In this document: positions 437-33,350 of the stretch, one piece after another
How the letters are laid out: each line of letters opens with the position of its first letter
How positions within the stretch are numbered: the stretch's first letter is position 1
Origin: Chiloscyllium plagiosum
Taxonomy: Eukaryota
Direction: 5' to 3'
Assembly: GCF_004010195.1 (NCBI RefSeq)
Contig: NC_057755.1
Location: 7,516,501-7,549,969 of the forward strand
Length of the DNA: 33,469 nt
Notes under the pieces: model-generated
Databases searched by the model: none
The model's input: only the letters and a program-made list of their open reading frames with translations
What the model was told of the DNA's origin: nothing
Translations under genes and position numbers: made by a program

Positions 437-1238
437 GATCATAGAACATAGAACAATCCAGCGCAGAACAGGTCCTTCGGCCCTCGATGTTGTGCTGACC
501 TGTGAACTATTCTCAGCTCTTCCACCTACGCAAACTCAAAATCATCCTTGTGCTTATCTAAGGATTGTGTAAATCTCCCTAATGTGGCTGAGTTGACTGC
601 ATTGGCAGGTAGGGCATTCCATGCCCTTACCACTCTCTGCATAAAGAACCTGACTCTGACATCTGTCTTAAATATATCACCCCTCAATTTGTAGTTATGC
701 CCCCTTGTACAAGCTGACGCCATCATCCTAGGAAAAAGACTTTCACTGTCTACCCTATCTAATCCCTTTGTATGTCTGCATCAAACCCCCTCTGAGCCTT
801 CTTCTTTCCACTGAAAACAGACCCAAGTCTCTCAGCCTTTCCTCATAAGACCTCCCCTCCAGACCAGGCAATATTCTGGTAAGTCTCCTCTGAATCTTTG
901 CCAATGCTTCCAAACCTTCCTGAAATATGGGGCCCAGAACTGTACACAATATTCCAAGTGTGGACGCACTAGCATTTTGTATAGCGACAGCATGATATTG
1001 CGGCTCCGGAACTCAATCCCTCTCCAAATGAAAACTAACACACCGTATGCCTCCTTAACAGCACTATCCACCTGGGTGGCAACTTTCAGGGATCTATGTG
1101 CATGAACTCCAAGATTGCTCTGCATATCCATACTACTAAGAATCTTTCCATTGACCTAGTACTCTGCCTTCCTGTTATTCTTCCCAAAGTGCAGCACTTC
1201 ACATTTAGCTTCATTGAACTTGATTTGCCACCTCTCAG

Positions 1239-1452
1239 GAGGAGAAAGTGAGGTCTGCAGATGCTGGAAATCAGAGCTGAAAATGTGTTGCTGGAACAGC
1301 GCAGCAGGTCAGGCAGCATCCAGGGAACAAGAGAATCGACGTTTCGGGCATAAGGCCTTCCTGAAGAAGGGCTTATGCCCGAAACGTCGATTCTCTTGTT
1401 CCCTGGATGCTTCCTGACCTGCTGCACTGTTCCAGCAACACATTTTCAGCTC
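1239..1452. mobile_element. Foldback PLE-derived short element with hammerhead core and 14-bp TSD
   Basis: Inverted arms ~1273-1360 and ~1366-1453. TSD ttgccacctctcag at 1225-1238 and 1453-1466. Interrupts ORF2 of LINE B. Confidence 0.85.
1361..1388 (+). ncRNA. Minimal type I hammerhead ribozyme core (family A)
   Basis: CTGAAGA-A-GGGC-TTAT-GCCC-GAAA-CG-TC matches CUGANGA, stem II, GAAA and a UH site; ACGT palindrome in place of stem III. Confidence 0.75.
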
Positions 1453-3662
1453 TTGCCACCTCTCAGCCCAACTCTGCAGTTTATCCATGTCCCCCTGCAA
1501 CCTGTACATTCTTCCACATTGTCCACTACTCTACCAACTTTCGTGTCGTCTGCAAATGTAATTATCCATCCACCTATGCCTGCGTCTAAGAGATTTATAA
1601 AAAATGGCAGCCAGCAATGTTTCCCAAAACAGATCCTTGTGGCACACCATTAGTAACTGGACTCCAGACTGAATATTTTCCATCAAGCACTACTTTCTGC
1701 CTTCTTTCAGAAAGACAGTTTCTAATCCAAACTGCTAAATCACCCTCAATTCCATGCCTCTGCATTTTCTCCAATAGCCTACCATGTTGAACCTTATCAA
1801 AGGCTTTACTGAAGTCCATGTAGACCATATCAACTGCCCCACCCTCATTTACATGCTTGGTTATCTTCTCAAAAAACTCAATAAGGTTTATGAGACATGA
1901 CCTGCCCTTGATGAAACCATGTTGACTATCTGAAATCAAATTGTTGCTTGCTTGATGATTATAAATCTTATCTCTTATAATCCTTTCCAAAACCATTCCT
2001 GTAACAGAAGAAAGGCTCACTGGTGTATAATTACCTGGATTAACATTCCTTAATAATCTGTTGTGTGGAACTTTGTCAAATGTCCAGAAACACAACAGCC
2101 ACTGATTCAATCTTTTCCATGCTACTGGTTACATCCTCAAAAAAGAACACAAGATTTGTCAGGCATGATTTCCTCTCAGTGAAACCATGCAGACTTCTTC
2201 TGACCCTGACACCGCTTTCCAGTTCCTCTGTTATTACATCTGTAATCTTCGACTCCAACATTTTCCCCATCACCGATATCAGGCTAACCTGTCTGTAATT
2301 GCTTGTGTTCTCCTCTTTTTTTGAACAATGGGCCTTTACATAGTCTGGGATACAGTGCGTCAGACTCTTGGGGACATATTGGGTTTTAATTCCATCAATT
2401 CCCCAATACCATTTCCTGACAGTTAAGGATTTCCTTTAATTCCTCCTTCATGCTTGGTCCTCTATCCCATAGCATTTCTGGAAGATTATTTGCTTCGTCC
2501 TTGGTGAAGACTGGCCCAAAGTAGTTGATCCAACGGTATGTCATCTCTTTGATTTCCATTATAAATCCACATGACTCTAACGGCAAGGGACCCATACGTG
2601 TCTTCACCAGCCTTTTTCTTTTCACATATCGACAGAAACTTGTGCAGTCAGTTTTTTTTAATGTTTTACACAAGCTTACACTTGCATTCTATTTTCTCTT
2701 TCAGAATTAAATCCTTTGTACTCATCTGCTGGAATTTAAATTTCTCCAAGTCCTCAGTTTTGCTGATAACTTTTCTGAACACTTTGTACGCCTCCTCATT
2801 TTCTTTAACACGATCTGTGATTCCCTTGTTAGCCATGGTTGAGCCATGTTCCCAGATTTATGCTTTTCAACATAGGGGTGCGCAATCGTTGAGTTTCATC
2901 GACATGTTCTACAACTGTTTGCCATTGCCTATCCACCATCAAACTCTTAAGTATCCTTGGCCAGTTGATCCCAGCCAATCCATGCCTCATACCATCAAAG
3001 TTAGATCTCTTTAAGTTCAAAAGTCCAGTCCCAGATGTAACTGTGTCACTCTCTGTCTTAATGAAGAATTCTACCATAGTATGACCATGCTTACCCAAAG
3101 GATCTCCCATCACAAAGTTGCTAATTAATCCCCTCTCCTTAAACCACACCCAGTCTCGGATGGCTTCGTCTCTCATTGGTTCTCAACATATGAGACGAGA
3201 ACACCATCCCCTCTATATTCCAAGAAATCTTCCACCATCTCATTGCTACCAGTTTGATTAGATTGAAATTCCCTATAACTGCCACACCCTTATTTCAATA
3301 CCTGTAATATTCTGTTTTATGCAATCCCCATATGCACAACTATTGTTTGATGGTTTGTACACAATTCCCACAAATGTCTTTTCTTATCCACAGCTCCACG
3401 CATACTGATTCTACATCGTCCAGACCAATGTCCTTCTTTAGAATTGTGTTAACCTCTTTCTTAACCAACAACCTTCCACTGACCTCCTTTCATTTCCATC
3501 GATCTTTCCTGATGATTGAATGTTTGTGGATGTCGAGTTCCCATCCTTTGTCAGCCTGGAGCCCGGTCTCTGTGATCCCAATTACTCGAAATCATTAATA
3601 ACTGTTTGTGCAGTAAAATCTTCCACCTTATTAAAAATTATCATTGAAACACAGGGACTTCA

Positions 3663-3891
3663 GAGCTTAAAAATGTGTTGCTGGAAAAGCGCAGCAGGTC
3701 AGGCAGCGTCAAAAGAGCAGAAGAATCGATGTTTCGGGCATAAGCCCTTCTTCAGGGCTTCTTCCTGATGAAGGGCTTATGCCCGAAACGTCGATTCTCC
3801 TGCTCCTTTGATGCTGCCTGACCTGCTACGCTTTTCCAGCAACACATTTTTAAGCTCTGATCTTCAGCATCTGCAGTCCTCACTTTCTCCT
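3663..3891. mobile_element. Foldback PLE-derived short element with hammerhead cores on both strands and 14-bp TSD
   Basis: Arms ~3661-3755 and ~3765-3859. TSD acacagggacttca at 3649-3662 and 3892-3905. Same family as 1239-1452, opposite orientation. Confidence 0.85.
3765..3792 (+). ncRNA. Minimal type I hammerhead ribozyme core (family A)
   Basis: CTGATGA-A-GGGC-TTAT-GCCC-GAAA-CG-TC. Mirror copy on minus at 3728-3755 (CTGAAGAAGGGCTTATGCCCGAAACATC). Confidence 0.78.
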
Positions 3892-4847
3892 ACACAGGGA
3901 CTTCAACCACGTTTCCTTTTTGACTTCTATTGCTCTTTTAGAGTAATGTTGTAATATGACCCTTTTTGGATTTTATCTTTTATCGCTCTGCCTTCCATTT
4001 TCACCGTTCCCATACTGCCTTTGGTTTATGTTACCGCGTTCCTTCCCTCCGACTTCCTGAGCTGGTTTCCCTCCCCCTGCCGTATTTGCTAAAACCACCT
4101 TCAGACCTCCTCAAAGAGCCAAGATGAAGCTTTGCTGAGGTGTACAGTCTCCTTTGCTGAGGTGTACAACATCCAGCTCCTCCTACTCCCCGCTACCAAA
4201 CAGCCAAAAATAACCTGTGTCTACCAAGAGCAGTTGAGTCACCTGGAACAACATGGAACAGAATAGTTTGAAAGAAAATCAACAGTGAGGAGCAGCAAAG
4301 GGGAGAGCTCCAGTGCTGCAGAGATGGAGAATCGACAAAGATCTGTTATTTTACTGTTGCTTATTTCAGTCAACTTCCTTATATCATGTGCAATGTTAAT
4401 GTTTTATTGCATATGGAACCAGATGTGGTTCATTTGTATATCATTTTGGGTTTTTTGGTTTGAGTTGGAACTAAGTTTCATGCTGCAGCTCCTCAGTTGC
4501 TATATGAGCACTGGGATTTATACCATGACCCAGACAAAGTTCAGAGAGCAGCTGTAGATTATCTGGTTACTCTAATTCTCCATTTAATTCGTCAATGACT
4601 AGCACTGAGTCAGGAAGTCCAATGTTGTTCCAGCAGCAGGACGTGTGATAGCGTTGAGCAGGAGGTTGGTCACAAGGTTACATATTTGGCGGTTGCTTTA
4701 CCTGAAACACTACTCGGGTAGTGTCCCTCACCCATCCTCCTCCTTTAACCAAAATAAGAGTTCTGTGCGTCAGTTGGTAAGGTGGTAAGTGTTTTCTTTT
4801 GTGTTTCATTTTTACAGCGGATTGTTTGGGAATTTAAAATAGTGGGA

Positions 4848-16308: not shown

Positions 16309-17383
16309 TGTGGAACATCCAATGGATCCCATTGTTGCACCTGTTGATCTTTCATGTGTGATCTGTTGTTCGATTGTATTTCTGATGCTTCAGTATTCTG
16401 GGACATCGACTATTCTAGTCCCTTAATAGAGGTACTCTGATCTGCTTTCATTGTCGGGAAAGCTAAGATTAGCCTGCTCTAAGGGTCCACCATGGTTAAC
16501 AGATATGTATATTGTTGTTGCAATGGTAATGGGTGAACGCAGTTAATCTGCCAGATTTGAACAGGATAATCTCGTTTGATTCGTGTATTTGATTTTTGTG
16601 GCAGTGATGCGGGTTTTGCCTTTTAACACATCTCACATTTGCCAGTGAAATCTTCACCAGATAGGCGGGTAAGTGCTAACCCTAATTACTTGCCCATTGC
16701 ACAATGCTGTGATAGCCTAAATTTCCTGATATTCAAGAGCCCAATTTTCAGCGTAATTATCTTCAGATGCATCGTCAGATTCATTTTCTGACTTTTATTA
16801 TTCAATCTACAGCATTGCTGTGATCAGCAGATTCCAAAACATCTTTCACTTGGGCATCAATATGGTACACAGTAATTTTCATGCGCTGTGCCGTCACCCA
16901 TATTTGTTTCAAAGTTTTGTTGCCTATGGGGCTTTCCAGTAATTTTCCAGTCATGTGACCACCAGGTTGGCATTCATATAGCTATTCCATTGGCCACCAC
17001 CCACCAGGCAGTATAAATGCGCAGACACAGAATCTCTTCTCTCAGTTCTAGGACCACAGCTGCTAACTTGGCAAACTGGCTCGATCCCCCATCTGCTTCA
17101 CTGTGGATAATTATCTGTGTGGCACGATTAAACAGCCACTCGCCACCACCTTCGACCATTCTTCCAGGTGGCTGATAGATCAGTGAAGTAGGTTCAGTGG
17201 CGAGTATATTCTGGCAGTCGTTCAAGCAGAACACCCCTTTAAAGGGAGATGCAAATATATTCTAGTCAGAGCTCGGAGTTTGTTCACCTGGTGGGTTTTA
17301 AGCGATTTGATCATGGAGTTTGGTAATCCCTTCCTTTCAATTTTTTGTTCAATCAACTATGTGACATTTCTATTTTGCAATGG

Positions 17384-17587
17384 AAAAGCACATCAGTTCA
17401 GGCAGAATACGAGGAGCAGGAAAATCGACGTTTCGGGCAAATGTCTTTCATCAGGATTCCTGATGAACGGCTTTTGCCTGAAACGTCGATTTTCCTGCTC
17501 CTCGGATGCTGCCTGAATTGCTTTGCTTTTCCAGCAACTTTCTACTCCAGTATCTGATTTCCAGCATCTGCAAGTCATGATTTTTAC
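17384..17587. mobile_element. Foldback PLE-derived short element with hammerhead core, inserted in ERV pol
   Basis: Centre ttcatcaggattcctgatgaa. Plus core CTGATGA-A-CGGC-TTTT-GCCT-GAAA-CGTC from 17460. TSD ctattttgca(a/t)tgg at 17370-17383 and 17588-17601 (14 bp, 1 mismatch). Confidence 0.8.
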
Positions 17588-18902
17588 CTATTTTGCATTG
17601 GGGTTTTGTTGCGCTTTCCTGAACTAATGGATTGCAATGTCAAATAACTGTGACATCAAAATTTGTAACTCAAGTCACACGAGAACTTTGTCCTCACCCA
17701 TCTGTCCGTCAGTTTCCACTAAGGCACAGTCGCAGGCCAGTTGTGATTTTTCAAATGGTGTATAACGTGCAACTGGTTCAGTCAGTTTTCTGGTCCAGAA
17801 GCCCAAAAGAATTGATTTCCCCCTTTATCTCTACTGTAAGTTCGATGTGACTACATCTTTTGTTACTAATACTTGAATTTCAAAGGGTAAGCTAGTTATC
17901 CCAGAAGCCAGGTGCAGCGCAAGAGCTATGGCCTCTTTATCAACCAGAAATGCTATCTGCTTTTCACCGCACCGTTCAAACTGAGGTTTCTTTCATGTCA
18001 TAGCATATAAAGGTCTGAGTAACGTGGTCAAGTGAGGTATATGTCTCTGTCAATGTCCAAGTAGACGTATAAATTTCTGTGCTTCAGCCTTCCTAGTTTG
18101 AACTGCCATCACTTGTATTATATTATTTTATTTTCGCGATTACCCTATCCCGTTTTGTCCACTGGATTTCTGAGCACCGATTGTGCTCGTCTCTGTATCT
18201 TTTTTGGGGTTTACTTCACAGCCTTTGTTTTGCATTTTTACCTGTGTGTCTAGAACTTCCAACACCATGCTTTCTGTTGCTTCACAGATCAAAATGTCAT
18301 AAATACAATGTGCAATATGATTATCTGGTGATAGTGTAGACATATCTAAATCCTTTTCCAGTAGCCCAGGGCACGAGGTTGGGCTATGTAGATATCATTG
18401 TGGTAGTTGGCAGAAGGCATATTGATGATCCTCCCATGTAAAAGCAACCTGAGCTTGTCATTCCAGAGCTATCGGATTTGCTTCATAAATAATGACGTAG
18501 CAGTCATCTGGCCTCTGATGAATTTTCTATAACAGTGACCATACTAGACACAGCCGCTGAGAGTGGAAAAGCATCTGTGTTCACTTGGTGATAAATCAAC
18601 TGTCATTCACCAACATCCATCAGGCTGGTTTCCAGGCTATACCGGGCCATAGCATGCGGACACTACGTATACCACAATCCCCAGAGCTAACAGGCCATGT
18701 ATAGTATCCCCAATTTCTATGTGTAATCCTGAAATATGATACTGTTTCTCAAAACCACCTATGTGGGTGGAGGGGTAATGAGGCCCCCCACTTTGCCTTA
18801 CCAACAGTAACCATCTCAGCTCATACAGCAAAAGAATATTTGCCCATTGGGGTTTGAAAAGTGGGACCTCTCAACACATTCATGTCAATAATATTTTCTG
18901 AC

Positions 18903-19058
18903 AGTTTGGATATCAATGCCAGGACTGCCCATGGGCGTCCATTCTCCAAGGCCAATCTAATATTCGAACTGTTGCTGATATCACCCCACCAAATCCATTA
19001 ATATTTATTCTGGGCCCCTACGTCTATGGGGGGTTGCCATGTATAAACGTAAAAGCCT
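18903..19058 (+). repeat. 156-bp segment duplicated at 19478-19633
   Basis: Direct comparison; 1 mismatch seen. Confidence 0.95.
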
Positions 19059-19064
19059 TTGCCA

Positions 19065-19210
19065 NNNNNNNNNNNNNNNNNNNNNNNNNNNNNNNNNNNN
19101 NNNNNNNNNNNNNNNNNNNNNNNNNNNNNNNNNNNNNNNNNNNNNNNNNNNNNNNNNNNNNNNNNNNNNNNNNNNNNNNNNNNNNNNNNNNNNNNNNNNN
19201 NNNNNNNNNN
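19065..19210. other. Assembly gap (146 N)
   Basis: Run of N. Confidence 1.
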
Positions 19211-19467
19211 TCCGCTGTAGTGGGCGGTATATTGGGTCCAGGTCTATGTGTTTGTTGATGGAGTTTGTGGATGAGTGCCATGCTTCTAGGAATTCCCTGG
19301 CTGTTCTTTGTTTGGCTTGCCCTATAATGGTAGTGTTGTCCCAGTCAAATTCATGTTGCTTGTCATCTGCGTGTGTGGCAACTAGGGATAGCTGGTCGTG
19401 TCGTTTCGTGGCTAGTTGATGTTCGTGGATGTGGATCGTTAGCTGTCTTCCTGTTTGTCCTATATAG
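19211..19467 (-). mobile_element. Penelope-like element GIY-YIG fragment, inverted copy
   Basis: Reverse complement of 19632-19888 with scattered substitutions; runs into the gap. Confidence 0.9.
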
Positions 19468-19632
19468 TGTATCTGGTAGTTTGGATATCAATGCCAGGAC
19501 TGCCCATGGGCGTCCATTCTCCAAGGCCAATCTAATATTCGAACTGTTGCTGATATCACCCCACCAAATCCATTAATATTTATTCTGGGCCCCTACGTCT
19601 ATGAGGGGTTGCCATGTATAAACGTAAAAGCC

Positions 19633-19998
19633 TATATAGGACAAACGGGAAGACGGCTAACGATCCGCATCCACGAACATCAACTAGCCACGAAACGACG
19701 CGACCAGCTATCCTTAGTAGCCACACACGCAGACGACAAGCAACATGAATTTGACTGGGACAACACTACCATTATAGGGCAAGCGAAACAAAGAACAGCC
19801 AGGGAATTCATAGAAGCTTGGCACTCATCCACAAATTCCATCAACAAACACATCGACTTGGAGCCAATATACCGGCCACTACAGCGGACAGCTGAAGCTG
19901 ACAACCGGAAGTGGCAGGGACAGGCCACTATAAATGCCGGAGGAAACACCACAGAAGCGCTTCACAGGAGGCTCCCAAGCACTGAGGATGTCACCTAG
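19633..19998 (+). pseudogene. GIY-YIG endonuclease fragment of a PLE (open frame, but lacks the GIY half and RT)
   Basis: YIG motif and conserved R, EH, E and N. The first 8 aa of ORF 19609 derive from unrelated duplicated ERV sequence. Confidence 0.85.
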
Positions 19999-20018
19999 AC
20001 AGGCGACGAAACGTTTGC
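19979..20018 (+). ncRNA. Minimal type I hammerhead ribozyme (family B)
   Basis: Stem I GCA/TGC; CTGAGGA; T; stem II GTCACCT-AGAC-AGGCGAC (6 of 7 pairs); GAAA; CG; TT (GUU site). Confidence 0.85.
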
Positions 20019-20096
20019 AACAAAAACTTCCAGCTCGGCGAACAGAACCACAGCAACAAGCACCCGAGCTACAAATCTTCTCACAAACTTTGAAAT

Positions 20097-26319: not shown

Positions 26320-26466
26320 CTTTTTTTGGATTAGTGGTGCTGGAAGAGCACAGCAGTTCAGGCAGCATCCGAGGAGCAGCTCCTCGGATGCTGCCTGAAC
26401 TGCTGTGCTCTTCCAGCACCACTAATCCAAAATCTGGTTTCCAGCATCTGCAGTCATTGCTTTTAC
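26320..26466. mobile_element. Foldback element with perfect 54-bp arms and deleted hammerhead core
   Basis: Arms 26324-26377 and 26379-26432 with a 1-nt spacer. Flanked by ctcact(g/c)aaagat at 26307-26319 and 26467-26479. Confidence 0.85.
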
Positions 26467-26474
26467 CTCACTCA

Positions 26475-26810
26475 AAGATTAGACTGGTGCTGGAAAAGCA
26501 CAACAGGTTAGACAGCATTTGAGAAGCAGGAAAATCGACGTTTTGGACAAAAGCCCTTCATCAAGAATGGAGGCAGGGAGACTCCAGGGTGGAGAGATGA
26601 ATGGGAGGGTGTGGGGCTGGGGAGAAGGTAGCAAACAGTAGAATAGATGGATAGGTGTCAGGATGAAGGTGATGTGTCAGAAAGGAGGGTGGAGCGGATA
26701 GGGGGAAGGACGATTGGCAGGTAGGACTGGTCCTGAGGATGGTGCTGAGCTGTAAGTTTGGAACTGGGGTAAGATGGGGGAGGGGAATGAGGAAACTGGT
26801 GAAGTCCCCT
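26475..26810 (-). mobile_element. Longer non-palindromic 3' end of the family A PLE with degenerate hammerhead
   Basis: Minus strand TTGATGAAGGGCTTTTGTCCAAAACGTC at 26537-26564; same downstream tail as the foldbacks; ~245 bp of upstream pyrimidine-rich sequence. Confidence 0.7.
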
Positions 26811-32634: not shown

Positions 32635-33350
32635 TGATTTGGAGATGCTGGTGTTGGAATGGGGTGTATAAAGTTAAAAATTACACAATACCAGGTTAGA
32701 GTCCAACAGGTTTAATTGGAAGCACACTAGCTTTCGGAGCGTCGTTCCTTCATCAGGTGGTTGTGGAGGACACAGTTGTAAGACACAGAATTTACAGCAA
32801 AAACTTACAGTGTGAAGTAACTGAAATTATACATTGAAAATACCTTGATTATTTGTTGAGTCTTTCATCTGTCAGAAAACCATGAAAGCTTCATTTCTTT
32901 CATCTGTAAATCACAAAACTTTTTTTAAAGGTTACGTTCTCAGGTTAAATGTAACAATTGGTGTCAGACAGATATGTTGAAGGTGTTCGCCCCCTGTGTT
33001 CCCTGTCTGTGCCATAATGTTTAGATTGATTCTAATCTAAAATGTGAGTTAACAGAGTCTTACATGGATTCATTCATTTTTTGAGCAAAGTACAATGTAA
33101 CTCTGCAAGTACAAATTCACCCCAGAAACATATATATCTATGTGTGCTAGTGGGTTTGTGTGTGTCTGTGTCTGTCTGTGTGTCTGTCTGTCTGTCTGGG
33201 GTTGGGGATTGTGAGAATGAGAAAAAGTGCATATGTGTGTGTATGAGATTGTAGAGTGTCCAGCTGTGTGAGAGGGTGCATGTGTGTGTGTTGTAGGAGT
33301 GTGTGGGTGAGAGTTGGGGAGGGGTAAGGGATTGTGATTGTCAGTGAGAG
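32635..33350 (-). mobile_element. PLE-type 3' terminal region with hammerhead (family D) and TG/CA-rich tract
   Basis: Hammerhead ~90 nt from the presumed 3' end; tail ccaacaccagcatctcca resembles the ccagcatctgca tail of family A; TG-rich at 33158-33310. Confidence 0.6.
32725..32759 (-). ncRNA. Minimal type I hammerhead ribozyme (family D)
   Basis: Stem I CAC/GTG; CTGATGA; A; stem II GGAAC-GAC-GCTCC (4 of 5 pairs); GAAA; GC; TA; AGCT palindrome. Confidence 0.8.

Follow-up and report, generated by a model that had tools for sequence, protein, structure and literature searches.

Penelope-like elements (PLEs) are already known to leave truncated copies in inverted orientation, tails on one side only and palindromic junctions, and in the available text of PMC3846280 and PMC8557442 an EN+ PLE insertion unit consists of a 5'-truncated copy, an adjacent inverted pLTR and a 30-40-bp tail on one side. 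The route by which PLEs reach tandem, inverted and tailed insertions is termed 'still undefined' in the latter source, as far as its accessible sections go. A minimal type I hammerhead of PLEs was defined by Cervera and De la Pena (PMC4209133), and the parts of that 2014 paper at hand describe paired motifs on opposite strands, separated by 100-700 bp, as well as solo motifs from truncated PLEs; its results and discussion, in the same parts, leave sharks unmentioned. In vitro, the anole Poseidon protein, predicted to be a dimer, cuts and extends both strands, with two internal starts bounding the tail (Frangieh et al., PMC11167929).

Here, we describe an insert in a window of 33,469 nucleotides from the shark Chiloscyllium plagiosum (the window being the whole stretch of DNA analysed), together with the genome-wide family to which it belongs. 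The insert is very probably a coding-free stub of an endonuclease-bearing PLE, put together at insertion. As for the route, we consider it reasonably probable that two nick-primed cDNAs were made on the 5' leader of the element RNA, ran off at its capped end and were joined by microhomology. The single insert is ordinary as an object, and it is the family statistics that bear on how PLEs insert.

Architecture of the insert

The insert measures 214 bp (1239-1452) and lies inside a LINE ORF2, with an exact 14-bp repeat, TTGCCACCTCTCAG, on either side (1225..1238 and 1453..1466), the left copy being part of host LINE codons. The host is a decayed ORF2 on the minus strand (832..2128), which we take to be CR1-type from its motifs, and its frame at 1598-2128 matches RVT_1 at 1e-18. 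Since the minus-strand translations of the two flanks, ...LQSWAERWQ and ERWQIKFNEAKCEVLHFG..., are two halves of a single LINE ORF2 frame that the insert interrupts at the duplicated codons, the 14-mer represents a genuine target-site duplication (TSD).

Within the insert, inverted arms at 1273-1360 and 1366-1453, 88 nt each, are 97% complementary. Refined limits place the arms at 1239-1360 and 1358-1452, sharing a 3-nt TTC microhomology at the fold (1358..1360), a type of junction that recurs elsewhere. We number the element from +1, the A of TCATTCC, 4 nt before CTGA. The tailed arm (1239..1360, minus strand) then runs from +131 to +10 and is identical to a natural copy, L303, at 118/122 positions, while the tail-less arm (1358..1452, plus strand) covers +2..+96 and is identical to L303 at 91/95. 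The tail itself (1239..1272, minus strand) comprises 34 unpaired nucleotides, +98..+131, on one arm only; its outer end is start site B, and the outer end of the tail-less arm is start site A. Only the tail-less arm has +2..+9 and only the tailed arm has +97..+131, so neither arm is a plain copy of the other, each containing sequence that its partner is missing. The hairpin is calculated at -185.3 kcal/mol (z -21), a value equalled by 0/200 shuffles. These coordinates agree with the initial annotation, which had described a 214-bp insert with arms of about 88 bp, a one-sided tail of about 34 bp, a perfect 14-bp TSD and a hammerhead core.

The string reported at the fold, CTGAAGA-A-GGGC-TTAT-GCCC-GAAA-CGTC, is present on the plus strand at 1361..1388 and reads as a putative minimal type I hammerhead, with CUGAAGA, an unpaired A (A1368), stem II GGGC/GCCC, GAAA and a palindromic ACGU (ACGT in the DNA); cleavage is predicted after C1388 (element +32/33). 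Only the plus strand holds an intact core, the minus arm ending at +10 without CTGA. Helix I, which spans 4-5 bp in this hammerhead type, is AUUC/GAUU and forms three of four pairs in this subfamily and four of four in a related subfamily with GAAU; in the insert, which lacks +1, two pairs are left. Among 67 arms of a random genome sample, core positions are 93-100% conserved (the CpG-adjacent G, 90%), and the free positions stand at 55% (N7) and 60-91% (loop II). Stem II has changed on both sides in single copies, to GAGC/GCTC and to GGTC/GACC. The descriptor search that had been recommended returned 33 motifs and 0 in the reversed sequence; an Rfam scan of the insert matched no hammerhead family, giving only miRNA-hairpin matches below gathering scores. 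Judged by its sequence, the motif fits the minimal PLE-type hammerhead, with a weak helix I. In the stub it would be a passenger, as a read-through transcript would bury it in an 88-bp hairpin.

The window holds further relatives. A second foldback of the same family (3649..3905, plus strand) has both cores intact, a different junction and an exact 14-bp TSD; the segment around it (window 3500-3960) recurs with the same flanks in at least three other places (L032, L033 and L054), and the foldback thus predates a duplication. A third, older foldback, of a related subfamily, occupies 17370..17597 (plus strand) with a 10-bp exact direct repeat at its ends. A related subfamily is also found at 26320..26800, where a small, perfect fold (about 26320-26470) that turns at about +40 and has no hammerhead core lies beside a single arm (26485 to about 26800, minus strand) extending into a pyrimidine-rich 3' UTR.

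Other hammerhead-bearing repeats are distinct. A GIY-YIG fragment at 18904-20095 was considered as the parent and rejected, with a different hammerhead, a different tail and zero Pfam matches; it is a separate PLE copy whose 5' part is inverted, with an N gap between; its ORF end is GIY-YIG-like, outside a Zn-finger context, and a hammerhead of its own lies at 19982. A third repeat family with a hammerhead, its stem II being GGAGC/GCTCC, is found at about 32640-32790 of the window (minus strand) and in L035, L099, L231, L286 and L302, and it too makes foldbacks, in L035 and L302. A second hammerhead family yielded 7 copies, too few for a boundary count.

The parent element

Thirty longer copies, found via the single-armed neighbour, carry the same hammerhead. 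In the sense direction they present a C-x4-C-x2-C linker, GIY-YIG, a pyrimidine-rich 3' UTR and the hammerhead, and they end at site A in 24/30 cases, the tail being kept in 6/30. In L063 the GIY-YIG domain (PF01541, 23.4 bits with a cut-off of 22.6) is contiguous with hammerhead and tail. In L065, reverse transcriptase (RT) motifs run through the linker upstream of the hammerhead on the same strand, with an N gap and a rearrangement between; RVT_1 scores under the curated cut-off here (E 0.062) and in L192 (7.9e-5), RT motifs being present in both. L065 overlaps L075, L089 and L063 over the linker at 75-89% identity, and its protein has 139 long homologues that carry RT and thumb domains and in many cases GIY-YIG; among those with a name, uncharacterised shark proteins (75-78%) are the best.

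The same segment also precedes an ORF. The tail continuation has 1,106 exact matches, and 5 of the first 30 listed extend into a common sequence; this sequence 3' of the tail opens an ORF about 167 nt after +1, starting MPSLKKLSS.... The N-terminus read from L307 (first 160 residues) matches 59/120 of the RT homologues, the best ones at their own N-termini, and the L063 GIY-YIG piece matches 111/120; one homologue, P0022, is matched by both, at 1-155 and at 766-902, respectively. As it follows the GIY-YIG ORF and also precedes the ORF start, the hammerhead-plus-tail segment is the pLTR/5' leader of a PLE with a Zn-finger linker. Among the ORF-bearing copies that retain the 5' core, 8/9 start at the +1 region where the stubs also stop, which is what full-length 5' ends should show. 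The ORF-bearing copies are mostly of the TCT haplotype (15/16), one step from the TCG of the insert.

The parent was tiled from overlapping copies at 75-96% identity, no single gap-free full-length element being recovered; as many long copies (L061-L090) break at N gaps, the assembly under-represents full-length elements. On the tiled copies, a single-ORF element with RT and GIY-YIG ends in the same repeat. The motif before GIY-YIG, CNRKKCKTC or CNRRRCNTC, is Zn-finger-like, and a motif of this kind between RT and EN is given, in the text available of PMC8557442, as a criterion common to the Neptune and Nematis clades; from its linker motif, the parent would accordingly be placed in Neptune or Nematis. 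The PLE derivation first put forward from the hammerhead is in this way supported by copies that share hammerhead, tail and ORF N-terminus, and the RT plus GIY-YIG element with the same tail that had been predicted is found in L063 (endonuclease) and L065 (RT upstream). Two observations named beforehand as fatal to that derivation, fixed terminal inverted repeats and a fixed TSD with no PLE sharing the tail, or a core CTGANGA/GAAA without family-wide conservation, are not what the family displays: TSD length varies, a PLE shares the tail and the core is conserved.

Family-wide architecture

The family is large. A 26-letter core pattern has 47,131 exact matches in the 3.56-Gb genome, and a short-fold pattern has 13,779, counting both strands. 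A random sample of 80 arbitrary 10-kb stretches (761,782 non-N bases) contained 97 wider-family elements, among which 19 are foldbacks; extrapolation from 19 in 762 kb gives roughly 9 x 10^4 foldbacks genome-wide, related subfamilies included. Solo stubs with TSDs and tandem pairs also exist, the joints of the latter being variable.

For a closer tabulation, we assembled 135 foldbacks whose two arms each match the reference copy at 88% or more, a mixture of selected and unselected loci from which 8 duplicate or segmentally duplicated loci had been dropped. A TSD was detected in 107/135, measuring 14-16 bp in 78 of these; a control with mismatched flanks gave 3/135, all of 7 bp. In the unselected subset, 31/42 have a TSD of 12-17 bp or, in one case, 21 bp. 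The tabulation of junctions and TSDs suggested by the initial annotation hence yields variable junctions with TSDs mostly of 14-16 bp.

Fold junctions are indeed diverse: by hand count of the first 100 fold-pattern matches listed, 61 loci display 37 junction types, the commonest in 8/61, and the recurrent types join short shared words (CC, TTC). One junction is seen on as many as three haplotypes and may have its tail at either end, and the stub haplotypes are those of the long and the ORF-bearing copies. A single junction dominated the 30 best matches, a selection effect, as that junction amounts to 131 exact copies genome-wide. At three loci (L180:7450-7483, L238 and L090) filler that belongs to neither arm sits at the junction. 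A fixed non-autonomous family copied as a unit was rejected on the variety of junctions and on the recurrence of the same junction on several haplotypes and in both polarities. Of the two options left by the initial annotation, a non-autonomous family or a recurrent extreme truncation product, the recurrent product is therefore favoured by the variable junctions and the family is less favoured; the wording 'extreme truncation' is probably wrong, the arms stopping at a defined site and not randomly.

These junctions also bear on an alternative that we regard as unlikely, namely that the PLE protein mobilises, in trans, a SINE- or retrozyme-like RNA that is short and non-coding, begins at +1 and is driven by an internal promoter, in which case foldbacks would either form at insertion or spread as units from a few masters. 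Stubs do outnumber long copies, some 70% of exact cores are without the upstream parent bases, solo stubs carry TSDs of their own and one junction has reached 131 exact copies; moreover, the D. virilis Penelope promoter is described as internal in the available part of PMC2377424, and animal retrozymes are proposed to be pLTR-derived in the accessible text of bioRxiv 10.64898/2026.07.22.740005. However, 131 copies are few against 13,779 strand matches, and 37 junction types at 61 loci among the first 100 matches listed (commonest 8/61), one of them shared by up to three haplotypes and by both tail orientations, speak against this alternative. Stubs share their haplotypes with long and ORF-bearing copies, and ORF-bearing copies have the +1 end as well. 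The anole RNA, in addition, needs about 55 nt past the start site (PMC11167929), a stretch that the stubs do not have, should this requirement hold in the shark.

Outer ends and arm pairing

The outer ends of the arms form two clusters, at +92..+96 (site A, about +94) and at +128..+131 (site B, about +130). With ends so classified, the 135 foldbacks comprise 102 AB, 2 BB and 0 AA pairs with 31 unclassified, and the 42 unselected ones 36 AB and 1 BB with 5 unclassified; the tail is thus on exactly one arm in 102/104 classifiable foldbacks. Such strict one-tail pairing would follow from one start site per strand. At 28/40 unselected outer ends the target matches the next 1-4 nt of the template, about 30% being expected by chance. 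We judge it likely that both arms were primed.

Arms agree with each other at polymorphic sites in 331/346 comparisons (216 expected), which also fits self-copying or conversion. Of the rare variants, 15 are shared between arms and 114 single; the shared ones are concentrated in a small number of copies from other subfamilies and fail to discriminate between the insertion models. Self-copying is the core of a further alternative, an improbable one in our estimate: a single B-primed cDNA would fold back and copy itself as far as A, the bases at the hairpin tip being lost later. Such self-priming is proposed for PLE palindromic junctions in the part of PMC3846280 at hand, and the arms of the insert at 1239-1452 share variants (T at +40, G at +73). 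Against this stand the eight positions +2..+9 in its tail-less arm, absent from the tailed one, and the template matches at both outer ends (28/40 unselected, about 30% expected). Site A also ends 24/30 long direct copies and solo copies, which makes A a start site and not the stop of self-copying.

The inner boundary

The inner ends of the arms cluster at +1 or just inside it. Among 45 arms at 88% identity or more in the random sample, 18 start at -4..+6, 1 at -14..-5, 9 further upstream and 17 at +7 or later. In a core-anchored sample (the first 97 exact cores on one chromosome), the arm stops 0-6 nt before CTGA in 64/97 cases, 7-16 nt before it in 8 and more than 20 nt before it in 25. This set misses arms cut inside the core; one of its loci is duplicated, some of its arms border N gaps, and other subfamilies, whose upstream sequence differs, contribute a few copies. 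The eight bases upstream of +1 in the parent are kept by 13,993/47,131 exact cores.

Several origins of this boundary were examined. Hammerhead cleavage was rejected, no pile-up being seen at the predicted cut (1/110 arms of the random sample at +31..+36). A splice acceptor at +1 was likewise rejected, the parent having CCTC and not AG before it; nor do arm ends pile up at the upstream pyrimidine tract, which terminates in TTAG at about -21. The initiator consensus is YYANWYY, and TCATTCC at +1 fits it as far as sequence can tell; a TTTATCT word lies about 30 nt further upstream. Transcription starts within the pLTR in D. virilis Penelope, according to the available text of PMC2377424 and PMC8557442. 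In raw single-cell RNA reads of one run the stub segment is deep and the ORF part has a depth of 0-7; these reads are dominated by stubs inside host transcripts, and no start pile-up is seen in them at +1.

The base preceding arms that begin at the +1 A is G in 2,909 and T in 775 cases genome-wide, on a genomic background of 0.208 for G and 0.292 for T; copies with G at -2 are left out of this count so that the commonest opposite-arm junction does not contribute. Bases of the target or of the opposite arm can account for part of the G excess. At several loci the G falls within the TSD, as fits pairing with a cap-templated C, and L1 and a retroviral RT are described as adding an extra G when the cap is reverse-transcribed (in the available portion of PMC4038843, citing Gilbert 2005 and Volloch 1995). 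We lean towards the view that the boundary arises where cDNAs run off a capped start.

A boundary set by the hammerhead, through polymerase stalling or cleavage, on templates whose arms were all primed on the 3' repeat and with +1 not being an RNA 5' end, has a low probability in our view. The boundary does fall at the 5' edge of helix I, and since about 30% of cores continue upstream, priming on the 3' repeat does occur. Nevertheless, the arms stop after crossing the whole motif and not before it, the predicted cut site (+32/33) has no pile-up and a stall leaves the G excess unexplained. Finally, a MITE moved by a DNA transposase, which small size, hairpin shape and high copy number might bring to mind, can practically be dismissed, as the initial annotation had anticipated, since the inverted repeats miss one terminus (the one-sided tail), the TSD varies from 12 to 17 bp, the fold centre varies, the same sequence ends RT/GIY-YIG elements, and solo and tandem forms exist.

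Proposed insertion mechanism

With the alternatives weighed, the two-cDNA route can be set out in steps. An RT/GIY-YIG protein, probably a dimer, would nick both target strands 14-16 bp apart, and each 3' end would prime internal reverse transcription, one at A and one at B. With +1 as the presumed capped transcription start, priming on the 5' leader would give run-off cDNAs of 95 and 130 nt ('strong-stop-like'), which may often gain a cap-templated extra base. The two cDNA 3' ends would then be trimmed and joined by microhomology (TTC in the insert at 1239-1452), with repair filling the gaps. The insert, as a stub, was probably dead on arrival.

In 8/30 ORF-bearing loci (L281, L289, L290, L291, L293, L295, L297 and L307), an arm starting at most 6 nt from the core is fused to a variable point at the ORF 5' part of another copy, in some cases with a G at the joint. 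These fusions look like a run-off cDNA jumping onto a second template.

More tentatively, and with somewhat less than even confidence, PLEs may make target-primed 'strong-stop' cDNA routinely: a dimer would prime both nicked strands at two 5'-leader sites of a capped transcript, and the cDNAs could join each other, join the target or jump elsewhere on RNA, fates that would yield foldback or solo stubs, tandem pairs and perhaps the pseudo-LTR. If so, the stubs would constitute a genome-wide record of tens of thousands of PLE insertion events.

The family counts give in vivo support to the two-start-site result obtained in vitro, and they add predictions: the two strands should be nicked 14-16 bp apart, each should have a single start site, and the cDNAs should run off at a capped +1. 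For annotation, the stubs resemble MITEs or miRNA hairpins and are neither. In the open literature, which excludes Repbase, Dfam and subscription journals, we found neither a description of run-off foldback stubs of PLEs nor a run-off boundary with an extra G, nor one-tail pairing read as twin priming.

Comparison with known systems

The stub resembles the EN+ PLE insertion units, as depicted in the available text of PMC3846280 and PMC8557442, in its head-to-head arms, its 34-nt tail at one end, its TSD and its palindromic junction, and differs from them in that both arms consist of the leader segment only, without an ORF. The TSDs of shark stubs are 14-16 bp, compared to 8-10 bp for rotifer PLEs. 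Endonuclease resolution (for the tail) or self-priming (for the fold) is the explanation given in the same sections of these sources; the shark counts, by contrast, indicate two primed starts.

With the PLE pLTR hammerheads of PMC4209133, as presented in its accessible parts, the motif shares the core, the unpaired base before stem II, the G-C first pair, the palindromic 15.2-16.2 and the lack of helix III. It deviates in a stem II of 4 bp, a helix I of 3/4 pairs and motif pairs that are fused at the motif itself. Non-LTR retrozymes, going by the available text of PMC7229834 and bioRxiv 10.64898/2026.07.22.740005, are likewise short, non-coding, PLE-related and equipped with a type I hammerhead. 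They are head-to-tail tandem units, while the insert at 1239-1452 is a head-to-head pair with a variable junction and one intact core; identity with retrozymes was rejected on these grounds, the occasional tandem pairs having variable joints.

As in anole Poseidon (PMC11167929), two putative internal RT starts bound a tail downstream of the hammerhead and both strands appear to be cut and extended; a further likeness is that hammerhead cleavage is not needed by Poseidon in vitro. Foldback stubs and the run-off boundary are not described in that study, and the ORF, which in Poseidon starts inside the hammerhead, starts at about +167, after the tail, in the shark element. The latter is moreover of another clade, with a Zn-finger linker, and its priming ends show short template matches.

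Two more distant systems offer partial parallels. In L1 twin priming, two target nicks prime two cDNAs that are joined by microhomology, which inverts an upstream, non-overlapping segment; both shark cDNAs, in contrast, would copy the same segment. Retroviral minus-strand strong-stop DNA is a short, tRNA-primed cDNA that runs off the RNA 5' end, and the shark cDNAs, proposed here to be target-primed instead, would likewise run off the 5' end of their RNA.
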